This document shows positions 59,926 through 62,380 of a DNA stretch of 64,000 bases, one piece after another. Location of the stretch: positions 1,359 through 65,358 of the IMG/VR virus record IMGVR_UViG_3300031998_000077. One strand, written 5' to 3'. How positions within the stretch are numbered: the first letter of the stretch is position 1; every line of letters starts with the position of its first letter. The notes beneath the pieces were generated by a model that saw nothing but the letters and a program-made list of their open reading frames with translations, searched no databases and was not told the origin of the DNA. The stretch is from a virus. Its lineage: Duplodnaviria > Caudoviricetes. The translations under genes were made by a program, and so were the position numbers.

Positions 59926-61362
59926 TTAGATAAAGGTATCTGACGATGCCGATGTGTTGTGTTTGCTGTGGATGCGGTAGCGGAGGCAGTCGTACAGGTG
60001 ATCTTCCTGTGTCGTGTCAACGTCGTCGTCTCCGTTCTGCGCGTATTGCAGGGACGGCACGGTTCGCAGAAAATTCCGGCAGTGATCGAAGACGAAAAGC
60101 CCCGGTTCGTGGTCGCGTTCCAGTGTGTTTTTCAGCCGTTCCCGGATTGCCACAAGTCCCGTCTTCCGGCTTCCGGGGGATTTGTCCGCGTGTCGCCAGT
60201 AGATGCCGTTTTCGGAAAAACTGCGGGCAATCGTGTGGCCGCGCCCCCATTGGTCGCCGAAGATCGCGCTGTCTGCCGCCCCGTCATGCACGTCAAGCTG
60301 TAACTCCTTGTCCCGTGCCTTGATCTTTTCGGCAACCTCTTTCGGGACTTCCCCGGTTCCCGTGTCGGCTTTCCCGGCGCACCCGTAAAGCTCATCTATG
60401 ACAAAGAGATCGCCCGGTATCGTCGGTATCTCCGTGCCGTCCGGCAGAATCACGTCGGAACCGTCGCTTTCCGCGAAATACAGGCAAGCCCAAGGATGCG
60501 TCGTACCCCAGTCAAATGTCCGGTCAACGTACCATGTTTCGGGGATTTTGAAACGCGGCATCGTGTGGGTGTCGGTGTTCCAAATGTCATCCAGCGCGCC
60601 GCCCGCCTTGACATCCCAATTGCCCTCCGCCATCGCTTTGACGAGCCATGCGGGGCCAAGTCCCTGTAGTGTCCGCATGTATTCGTCGCGGTTGAGGCTG
60701 GGATTGTCGTCGAGTTTCGCCGGGATGAATTGCCGCAGAAAGCCGCCGTCGTTTTCATCCGTCTGCCATATCTCCCAAGGCTTTACCGGGTCAACAAACG
60801 TGGATTTCACCCAATTGTGGCCGATGCCCGTCGGGTTCGTGCCGCAGACGATCTTCGGGAACCGGATTCCCGGATATGCGTCCCGGAGACGTTTCGGAAT
60901 GACAAGTTGATCGCTGGCGCGGCATCGACCGCGCAAATAGCGGTAGATGTACTCTGTAAAAAGCGTCAGCTCATCGACAAGAAGCAGATGGATTTCCGCG
61001 CCTCTGAAACGCTCCACGTCTTTTTCATACTGGCAGTGCGAGGCGATGATTTTCGCGCCGTTGTAGAACCGGATTTCCGCGTGTGGCGAGTAGGAGAATT
61101 TACAGTAGCCAATATCCGTGTAAGGCTCCAAAAGGGACGGGAAGCCTGTCGGCCCGTTGAAATGGTTTTGAATCAGGTCTTGGCTGTAGCGGCGGAACAG
61201 GTAGACTTGCAATCCCGGCACGTACATGCAACACAGGATCGCCATGACGCGCATCATGTGGCTTTTGCCGCCGCCAGCCGCTCCGCCGTAAAGGATTTCG
61301 TTCGCGGATGACAACAGCACCTCGCCCTGCCTCGCGTGTAGGGTGAAGTCGATTCCGTCCAT
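59926..61362 (-). CDS. terL: terminase large subunit
   Basis: YGGAAGGGKS Walker A, LLVDE Walker B, GTNP, DWG, EDHLYDCLRY. Confidence 0.95.
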   Translation of the reverse strand: MDGIDFTLHARQGEVLLSSANEILYGGAAGGGKSHMMRVMAILCCMYVPGLQVYLFRRYSQDLIQNHFNGPTGFPSLLEPYTDIGYCKFSYSPHAEIRFYNGAKIIASHCQYEKDVERFRGAEIHLLLVDELTLFTEYIYRYLRGRCRASDQLVIPKRLRDAYPGIRFPKIVCGTNPTGIGHNWVKSTFVDPVKPWEIWQTDENDGGFLRQFIPAKLDDNPSLNRDEYMRTLQGLGPAWLVKAMAEGNWDVKAGGALDDIWNTDTHTMPRFKIPETWYVDRTFDWGTTHPWACLYFAESDGSDVILPDGTEIPTIPGDLFVIDELYGCAGKADTGTGEVPKEVAEKIKARDKELQLDVHDGAADSAIFGDQWGRGHTIARSFSENGIYWRHADKSPGSRKTGLVAIRERLKNTLERDHEPGLFVFDHCRNFLRTVPSLQYAQNGDDDVDTTQEDHLYDCLRYRIHSKHNTSASSDTFI

Positions 61363-61385
61363 CTTTGTTGACCTCAAATTATTGT

Positions 61386-61459
61386 TGGAGGGGCTATCAG
61401 GATTTGAACCTGAACTACCGACACCAAAAGACGATGTGCTACCGTTACACCATAGCTCC
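61386..61459 (-). tRNA. tRNA-Gln(TTG)
   Basis: Cloverleaf: D-arm GTGTAACGGTAGCAC, anticodon loop TTTTGGT, T-arm TCAGG-TTCAAAT-CCTGA, encoded CCA; mismatches A3:C70 and T30:T40. Confidence 0.85.
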
Positions 61460-61469
61460 GCTTCAAGAA

Positions 61470-61551
61470 TGGAGGGGAGGCAGGCTCACGGTTTCGCTCC
61501 GTCCGGTTGTTTCTGTCGCCATGCGGCTTTTGAGAAACAGAGCCTCTCCCC
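61470..61551 (-). ncRNA. unclassified 82-nt structured RNA with a tRNA-like CCA end
   Basis: GGGGAG-AGGCTC pairs with GAGCCT-GC-CTCCCC, then TCCA; two internal hairpins. Confidence 0.6.
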
Positions 61552-61585
61552 ATGTCAACAATATCCTGCTTCGGTCAACCGCCGA

Positions 61586-62380
61586 TCACGATTTCTTGCG
61601 CGGCACGAACTGGAAACGGTAGCCGTATTGCTTTTGATTCGCCGTAAGCCAACGCTTGACGGCATCGTCGTAATCCGAGCCGCGAAGTTTCGCGCGTTTC
61701 ACAGCCCGCTCGAATTGCGCGGCCTTGAAGTGTCCGCCGCTTTTCCGGAAATACCAGTCGCCTTTCGAGCTGATCGCCACAATGCCGGATTCCCGCGTTC
61801 GCGCCACATGGATGAGATCGCTGTCTGAAAACGCGCTTGCGTCAGACTTGCCGGAAATGGGGTGATTATGGACGATGAGATGACCTTTCCCGCCAAGAAT
61901 CGGAACGGACGTAGAACCGCCCTCCATGTAGTTATGCACGTACCCCTGATTGTCGATTGCCATGCCGTATTCGTGATCGGCTTTCGTGTAGAGATCGGAA
62001 AAATACTTGATCGCGTCGGCTTCCGTCTTTATTTTGATGTGCGTGTTTGCCTCGGCATTCAGGTGTTTCCGGGAATCGTCCGCTCCACCGCCGTGCGGCG
62101 CATGACCGAATTTGAAATCTTTCATTTCGGACGAACCGCCTTTCCGTCCGGACAAGGCCGGAAGCGCGAACGCCTCGATACCGGACAATGCCGCCTCGAC
62201 CGTCTTCCTGCCGTCGAATGCGAAGCCCCACGCCTCGCGCATGGACTTGAATTTCACCGTCTTGTCGGTTTCGCCGTCCCACAGCCGGAGCGGGCGGGTG
62301 CAAAGGAAAAACCGCCCGTCTGAATCAAGCGGCCAGTGCGACAATTGCGGGAACATTGCCTGAAAATAGGAGAATTTCAT
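61586..62380 (-). CDS. JAB/MPN-like domain protein
   Basis: E(YG)...HNHP...FSDSD motif. Confidence 0.7.
   Translation of the reverse strand: MKFSYFQAMFPQLSHWPLDSDGRFFLCTRPLRLWDGETDKTVKFKSMREAWGFAFDGRKTVEAALSGIEAFALPALSGRKGGSSEMKDFKFGHAPHGGGADDSRKHLNAEANTHIKIKTEADAIKYFSDLYTKADHEYGMAIDNQGYVHNYMEGGSTSVPILGGKGHLIVHNHPISGKSDASAFSDSDLIHVARTRESGIVAISSKGDWYFRKSGGHFKAAQFERAVKRAKLRGSDYDDAVKRWLTANQKQYGYRFQFVPRKKS

Follow-up and report, generated by a model that had tools for sequence, protein, structure and literature searches.

A 65-kb virus of the IMG/VR collection, nearly all of which is covered by the 64,000-nt stretch of DNA analysed here (the window), carries a small structured RNA gene, element A, just upstream of its gene for the large terminase subunit (terL). 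Comparison with its homologues indicates that element A is a real, conserved and previously uncatalogued non-coding RNA family of narrow distribution. We consider it probable, at roughly 0.6, that the RNA is a non-decoding mimic of the tRNA acceptor end, which would be matured in the way a tRNA is. The positions of element A, its structural parts and the adjacent genes are collected in Table 1.

Table 1. Element A, its structural parts and neighbouring features in the window.
Feature	Position	Strand	Basis or remarks
Element A, 82-nt CCA-ended three-way-junction RNA gene	61470..61551	-	MFE fold; covariance-model matches and pairing in relatives
P1 5' strand	61540..61551	-	GGGGAG, A7, GGCTC; first base is the invariant G1
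P1 3' strand	61474..61487	-	GAGCC, TGC internal loop/bulge, CTCCCC
Hairpin 1	61508..61539	-	7-bp stem TGTTTCT/AGAAACA, A-rich internal loop CAAAA, variable tip
Junction linker	61503..61507	-	5 nt, ACCGG
Hairpin 2	61488..61502	-	ACGG-AGCGAAA-CCGT; 4 bp, 7-nt loop, G-C closure
3' tail TCCA, unpaired	61470..61473	-	Discriminator and encoded CCA
tRNA-Gln(UUG), second array gene	61386..61459	-	ARAGORN; Rfam RF00005, 53.8 bits
Large terminase subunit gene (terL)	59926..61362	-	PHROG 979 and PHROG 2, E 5e-32 and 9e-30
255-aa gene, PHROG 5057	61586..62353	-	Gene model from relatives; ends 5 nt before the upstream motif
Upstream motif GGTTGACCG	61572..61580	-	Inside imperfect palindrome CGGTTGACCG

Fold and conservation of element A

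The MFE fold of element A, read on the minus strand from 61551 to 61470, has an energy of -34.4 kcal/mol and accounts for 52% of the ensemble, while shuffled versions average -24.5 (z = -3.08), with none of 200 shuffles folding as well. This fold agrees with the architecture put forward in the preliminary description, a 12-bp acceptor-like helix with a 2-nt bulge that closes a three-way junction, and it contains both of the hairpins quoted there, the first with an inner GCC-GCAT-GGC at its tip. The closing helix in the window, P1, is made of 6 bp, an A7-U pair and a further 5 bp; its 3' strand carries a bulge of two nucleotides, GC. Hairpin 1 stacks directly on this helix. The parts follow one another in an order that is colinear with that of a tRNA without a D-arm: an acceptor helix, a hairpin at the anticodon position, a 5-nt 'variable loop', a hairpin of T-arm size, the acceptor 3' strand and NCCA. 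Thus hairpin 1 occupies the position of the anticodon arm, without the 7-nt loop, and hairpin 2 resembles a T-arm by position and size, the T54/Psi55/A58 consensus being absent.

Among 59 viral contigs with related terminases, only the closest (L001, 92% terL identity) has element A; further copies were obtained by protein-guided retrieval from ENA, Logan and JGI assemblies and by one DNA-pattern scan. This gave seven distinct versions (the window, L074, L001 with its identical copy L062, L063, L077, L070 and L087), every one of which lies just upstream of terL in a phage or prophage, at terL identities of 82-98%. Each version folds alone into the same architecture and, in a manual structural alignment, all pairs of P1, hairpin 1 and hairpin 2 are standard in 7/7. 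Covariation was scored in an alignment fitted to a covariance model, which holds the four versions detected by model R2 together with two hairpin-only chance matches. Here, 97% of cells are paired, a share that falls to 38-50% when the partners are slid by 1-3 columns, and both sides have changed at 10 of the 25 pairs, against a shuffle mean of 3.2 and with 0/500 shuffles reaching 10. In P1 alone (helices 1 and 2), 6/11 pairs have changed on both sides. The covariation that had been proposed as a check on the structure is therefore present, at 10 pairs and with full pairing in all seven versions, and the earlier reading of this segment as a structured RNA gene is borne out by a fold that seven distinct homologues have kept through compensatory changes. 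In the genomes that carry element A, terL is only 54-76% identical to that of the window at third codon positions, and neutral sites are therefore near saturation. Taken together, the compensatory changes and the perfect pairing despite near-saturated synonymous divergence show that selection acts on the fold of element A.

The variation itself is spread unevenly over the molecule. The outer part of P1 occurs as GGGGAG/CTCCCC, GGGAAG/TTTCCC, GGAGAG/CTCTCC, GTCGGG/CCCGAC and GCGGA/TCCGC, and the inner part as GGCTC/GAGCC, GACGC/GCGTC and CTGGATGA/TCATCCGG; the total length of P1 is 12-13 bp in all seven versions, split as 6+1+5 or 5+8, with a bulge of 1-2 nt on the 3' strand. Hairpin 1 is more variable in size, being 30-80 nt long with an interior of 16-66 nt that is never a 7-nt loop; its stem is TGTTTCT/AGAAACA, TGTTCCC/GGGGACA, TGCCCCA/TGGGGCA or CTGCCG/CGGCAG, and its tip, depending on the version, is either a loop of 3-4 nt or a branched insert of 64-66 nt. 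The linker reads ACCGG, ACCAG, ACCAT or ACCAC, so that ACC is invariant. The stem of hairpin 2, ACGG/CCGT, never varies, and support for it therefore comes from conservation, not covariation; its loop is AGCGAAA, ATCGCAA or CACAATG, with C always at position 3 and a purine always at position 4. The pair G1-C72, U(-1) and the CCA are invariant across the seven versions, and the discriminator is U in the window and G in all six others. Pair 2-71, pair 3-70 and the discriminator read, by version, G-C/G-C/U, G-C/A-U/G, U-A/C-G/G and C-G/G-C/G. The acceptor-type helix of 12-13 bp and the NCCA end are the only tRNA-like features of element A, and they are under selection. A pairing between the leader and the junction, CGGTTG/CAACCG, was also considered; it is complementary in four lineages and lost in L077, L070 and L087, and was dropped.

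The family is narrow. When covariance models R1 and R2 were run on the 59 terL-related viral loci and on the fetched contigs, they matched only at terL identities of at least 82%, and the covariance-model search gave no element A in relatives at or below 69% terL identity, so that the seven versions are few and related. R2 misses the subtype of L070 and L087, which was found by eye and by regex. Moreover, blastn against 50,697 phage records left element A unmatched. The pattern scan returned only the contig of L001 from viral contigs, L074 and a chance hairpin (L073) from metagenome contigs, and from GTDB genomes only a chance hairpin in Streptomyces (L075). Finally, distant relatives were searched generically for helices with a CCA end ahead of terL, which brought up other odd tRNAs and nothing with an architecture like that of element A.

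The RNA array, its upstream motif and the host

In every version, element A is the first member of an array of CCA-ended tRNA or tRNA-like genes on the same strand, with spacers of 2-10 nt, and terL lies directly downstream of this array. ARAGORN, Rfam and PHROG agree with the gene order described at the outset, with tRNA-Gln 10 nt downstream of element A and then terL; this tRNA-Gln(UUG) is the only tRNA that ARAGORN and Rfam find in the whole window. The shared 3' end CCCCTCCA, by which the two genes had been linked, is peculiar to the window; gene ends differ in relatives and only NCCA is conserved. In the acceptor stem of tRNA-Gln, pair 3-70 is the mismatch A3-C70 in both the window and L074 (about 1743-1816 of that contig), and A3-U70 in L001.

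The composition of the array changes between lineages. Element A and tRNA-Gln make up the whole array in the window and L074; an additional 91-nt RNA, element B, stands between them in L001, L062 and L063, and tRNA-Cys does so in L077. In L070 and L087, element A is followed by a non-canonical tRNA-Tyr and an 85-87-nt Glu-like gene. The single tRNA-less lineage that was sampled, a terL cluster of about 80% identity, likewise lacks element A and has at this site a direct repeat with a 122-nt period.

Several of these companions are unusual in themselves. Element B (L001:2801-2891; L063:1079-1169), which is absent from the window and L074, is CCA-ended and lacks a D-arm. Its acceptor stem is 7 bp long, its anticodon loop, CTGTAAA, is of the Tyr type and stands on a long stem, and the loop of its T-arm is TTTGACT or TTTAACT; the anticodon arm seems to lie within a CCTCAC/GTGGGG helix. 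Only with the threshold lowered to 80% does ARAGORN call element B, and then with inconsistent anticodons. The two genes that follow element A in L070 (111-196 and 198-282) and L087 (about 1305-1390 and 1393-1479) are a tRNA-Tyr(GUA) with a D-loop without GG and the T-loop TGAGATT, found by ARAGORN only at the 90% threshold, and the 85-87-nt gene, which in L087 is called as a tRNA-Glu(UUC) that has a long extra arm, and in L070 as tRNA-??? (4-base anticodon, 80% threshold). In L079 (1311-1492), L083 (1-194) and L078 (about 1020-1500), relatives of about 80% terL identity, the tRNA array is missing, and the GTTGACCGG motif is followed, up to the start of terL, by a GC-rich segment of 60-72 nt that is directly repeated 2-4 times with a 122-nt period. 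Several Logan contigs break at these repeats. TRF reported no repeats in the repeat-bearing relatives; a separate repeat search showed two copies. In addition, two more distant terL relatives have tRNA-shaped genes upstream of terL that the ARAGORN default run missed: a 108-nt gene in L056 (2336-2443), with canonical D-arm and T-arm, a long extra arm and the anticodon loop CCUCCAG, and a 74-nt gene in L058 (2288-2361) with a canonical T-arm.

On the other side of element A lies the 255-aa gene, whose product gave nothing significant in Pfam and PDB sequence searches. A distant homologue, a 233-aa protein sharing an HNHP motif with it, is encoded in L068, which is without element A, and the idea that this protein and element A are linked was given up. 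In a close relative, the contig P0002, a PBECR2 gene (PF18810; 721-1227 of the listed locus) is inserted between a ParB-DUF4417 gene and the 256-aa gene that precedes the RNA array; the window has no PBECR2 gene. We take PBECR2 to be an RNase family of the barnase/EndoU/colicin-E5/D-like kind.

Upstream of the array site, the motif (A/G)GTTGACCG is present in every lineage, the repeat-bearing one included. In four lineages G1 follows its TTGACC core at a distance of 14 nt, and in the window and L074 the distance is 21 nt; in L087 and L079 the motif comes after a terminator-like hairpin with a U-tract. Examined as a general phage promoter, it has one exact copy in the window and no enrichment, and a scan for sigma-70 promoters and terminators around element A in the window predicted none. 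Since the motif does not fit the -35/-10 spacing of sigma-70 and is unique in the genome, a role as promoter is a guess: it might be a locus-specific promoter, an operator or a protein-binding site for the RNA array.

One of the relatives is a prophage within a 554-kb scaffold. A member of the cluster bears the label of a Lentisphaeria MAG, and human gut is the source of several samples; the host is therefore probably a human-gut Lentisphaeria bacterium.

Element A among known RNAs

ARAGORN never called element A, whether in default mode, at the 90% or 80% threshold or in its mitochondrial and intron modes, and Rfam searches, both at the gathering thresholds and at E <= 10 (the latter over 61300-61700), gave no family for it. 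This absence of a match had been predicted; the absence of a D-loop, of a TTC T-loop and of a cloverleaf had been noted at the outset, and in agreement with this element A has neither a D-arm nor a T-loop of the GTTCRANYC type. A 7-nt anticodon loop with U33 on a 5-bp stem is missing from all versions. A helix starting at position 1, an unpaired discriminator and a 3' CCA are present in all seven. The likeness to canonical tRNA (RF00005) thus comprises G1-C72, the unpaired discriminator and CCA, a terminal helix of the 12-bp class, a 5-nt linker at the position of the variable loop, a hairpin, its loop 7 nt long, that immediately precedes the acceptor 3' strand, and the location in a tRNA array. 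In contrast to tRNA, element A lacks the D-arm, the 7-nt anticodon loop and T54-Psi55/A58; it has three junction helices rather than four, and an extra helix of 5-8 bp in which the strand that follows the acceptor 5' half pairs with a segment inserted behind the T-like hairpin. The non-canonical tRNAs taken into this comparison were the 8/4 and 9/3 allo-tRNAs (PMC5389517) and D-arm-less mitochondrial tRNAs (PMC7609411).

For tmRNA, ARAGORN and Rfam gave no match, pair 3-70 is G-C, A-U or C-G and never G3-U70, and the T-loop consensus is lacking. Three-way-junction ribozymes (hammerhead, twister-sister) were likewise sought, and no Rfam model matched at E <= 10; the sequence does not contain CUGANGA. 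A coding function was rejected, as the closest variants differ by frame-shifting indels of 1-2 nt and no frame is open across lineages, and so was a tRNA fragment at an attachment site, as element A has no T-loop and is flanked by the same two genes whether in free viral contigs or in the prophage.

The closest counterparts by kind are stable RNAs of other phages. RNAC and RNAD of T4 (species 1 and 2, genes rnaC and rnaD) are non-decoding, lie in the tRNA cluster, are cotranscribed with the tRNAs and have no assigned role (PMC3014915; AF158101 annotation). Element A shares with them its small size, the absence of decoding and a place within a phage tRNA cluster; however, they have no sequence or model similarity to it (R2, E <= 10, T4 tRNA region), their folds differ, and they are 139 and 119 nt long compared with 82 nt for element A in the window. 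RNAC, as annotated, has a canonical GGTTCGAATCC T-arm and no encoded CCA, whereas element A, compared with the T4 RNAs, has no T-loop consensus, an encoded CCA and a closing helix of 12-13 bp on a three-way junction. RNA1, RNA2 and RNA3 of T5 (misc_RNA, AY543070) are annotated as tRNA-like stable RNAs of unassigned role and are interspersed with tRNA genes. In RNA3 (73 nt), as in element A, an acceptor-like helix closes two hairpins and the end is ACCA. Nevertheless, R2 finds no match in the T5 tRNA region (E <= 10), the folds differ, the T5 RNAs have T-loop-like sequence and an acceptor helix of 6-8 bp, as opposed to 12-13 bp, and the conserved core of element A, with its ACC linker and ACGG/CCGT hairpin, is its own.

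Element A is a non-decoding RNA gene in a phage tRNA cluster with tRNA-like termini, and in this sense it is a new family in the old class of phage tRNA-like stable RNAs, a functional class and not a homology family. The claim of novelty made for it accordingly holds for the family, which has no Rfam match and of which we found no published description, but not for the kind, which is already represented by T4 RNAC/RNAD and T5 RNA1-3. The term 'tRNA mimic', which had also been applied to it, is a fair description, because element A is a structured RNA that is not a cloverleaf and belongs to no Rfam family and because its acceptor helix and NCCA are conserved under selection; a specific aminoacylation identity is unlikely, as the relevant pairs and the discriminator vary.

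Proposed maturation and possible roles of element A

A discrete transcript, its ends and its stability are what we infer from the gene. In the model to which we give the probability stated above, a transcript from the conserved upstream motif would take in both element A and the tRNAs that follow it, RNase P would cut at the invariant U(-1)/G1, and 3' trimming would halt at the encoded CCA; given U(-1), G1 and the encoded CCA, excision by RNase P and 3' trimming is the most likely route. A stable RNA of about 80-130 nt would then accumulate. RNase P and the CCA-adding enzyme measure the length of the acceptor/T-arm stack, and the extra helix of element A would lengthen the acceptor stack to 12-13 bp, the length that tRNA-processing enzymes measure. 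As only the 'top half' of a tRNA (helix length, CCA and junction) is under selection, element A most likely acts through its tRNA-like end, which would be bound, modified or titrated by readers of acceptor ends that are indifferent to sequence. Since pair 2-71, pair 3-70 and the discriminator all differ between versions, recognition by one specific synthetase is unlikely, and such sequence-independent readers fit better. Candidate partners would be processing and CCA enzymes, or toxins of host defence that target acceptor ends.

Unproven as it is, a decoy or sponge acting in trans is the leading possibility for the role of element A. Spelled out, element A may be an abundant, sequence-independent, CCA-tailed decoy for toxins of the tRNA 3' end or for acceptor-stem nucleases, which would spare the tRNA pool; in this specific form we hold the proposal to be unlikely. 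The toxins concerned might be pyrophosphorylating, nucleotidylating or acetylating enzymes, to which we attach a similarly low probability, and it is no less doubtful that the hot spot may also gather replacement tRNAs that resist nucleases, which would be the odd Tyr-like, Cys, Gln and Glu-like genes. That element A is always first after the conserved motif and always alongside tRNA genes is fitted equally well by the main rival, a role purely in cis at the head of the operon transcript, which it would help to process or stabilise. It would then have no job in trans: its tRNA-shaped 5' end would form a cap against 5'-end-dependent decay, and it would afterwards be discarded. This is somewhat unlikely in our estimation, as is the related suggestion that it may provide an entry for RNase P by which the tRNAs and the terL mRNA would be freed from the RNA upstream of them. 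Bacterial RNase P substrates need a U(-1), a G1 and a 12-13 bp helix with CCA of the kind seen here, and the tRNA-less lineage is without element A, both of which speak for a cis-acting head element. On the other hand, the downstream tRNAs are already RNase P substrates, so that an extra one is not obviously needed, and the strict conservation of the linker and of the stem and loop of hairpin 2 exceeds what a generic protective hairpin would need. A further reading takes the acceptor-type helix and free NCCA, kept in seven versions, as a minihelix that a host or phage synthetase charges and from which the amino acid is donated to a non-ribosomal reaction. Some synthetases do charge acceptor minihelices, AlaRS being an example; yet the identity elements (pairs 2-71 and 3-70 and the discriminator) vary, there is no G3-U70, and no gene for a tRNA-dependent transferase is found among the neighbours examined, and we regard such a charged donor as very improbable.

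The position directly upstream of terL in all versions and a three-way junction like that of phi29 pRNA could suggest a packaging-associated, pRNA-like RNA or a recognition element for the terminase. Like phi29 pRNA, element A is a small phage RNA near packaging genes whose paired ends close a three-way junction. However, the same slot in sister lineages holds ordinary tRNAs, other tRNA-like genes or the unrelated repeat with a 122-nt period, and this variety of contents marks the position as a hot spot for cargo rather than a site tied specifically to packaging. Furthermore, relatives at or below 69% terL identity have the same type of terminase and no element A, which is thus not conserved with the terminase beyond a narrow clade; the hairpin loops (GCAU and AGCGAAA, or CUC and AUCGCAA) are not complementary, so that no ring would form; and terL is a classical nuclease-containing terminase rather than a phi29-type ATPase. 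With the CCA tail and the tRNA-array context added to these differences from pRNA, a part in packaging appears extremely unlikely. It would be less likely still that element A is a decaying tRNA pseudogene, an attP-type tRNA fragment or a short ORF. In its favour, the layout is colinear with that of a D-arm-less tRNA, a 59-codon ORF (61553..61374) that starts two bases before element A spans both it and tRNA-Gln, and several of the 3' differences that separate L001 from the window are synonymous when read in that frame. This reading is already contradicted by the 10 compensatory pairs and the perfect pairing in 7/7 versions at near-saturated synonymous divergence. Indels also disrupt the frame in L074, each lineage has a different one, and the ORF runs across a genuine tRNA; element A is not at an end of the prophage; and its 3' part is without the T-loop consensus expected of a host tRNA fragment.

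That phage tRNA clusters hold non-decoding, stable tRNA-like RNAs has been known since the 1970s, and to our knowledge none of these has ever been assigned a function. Element A is a compact and unusually informative example of them, because selection has left only an acceptor-type helix of 12-13 bp, the CCA and the junction core, which narrows its partners to readers of the 'top half'. Phage tRNAs can defeat defences that cleave tRNA, especially those aimed at tRNA-Tyr, which is a known target of PtuAB/Septu-type defences (PMC11555353, PMC13096335). Such Tyr-directed defences make the odd Tyr-like genes next to element A worthy of note, and a locus that swaps unconventional tRNA genes of Tyr, Cys, Gln and Glu type fits the view of phage tRNAs as counter-measures (PMC11555353, PMC13096335). 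If the decoy reading were true, element A would be the first RNA anti-defence factor of that type. Its occurrence in a prophage of a probable human-gut Lentisphaeria bacterium places it within experimental reach in principle, and a phenotype for element A would help to explain the whole class of phage tRNA-like stable RNAs.
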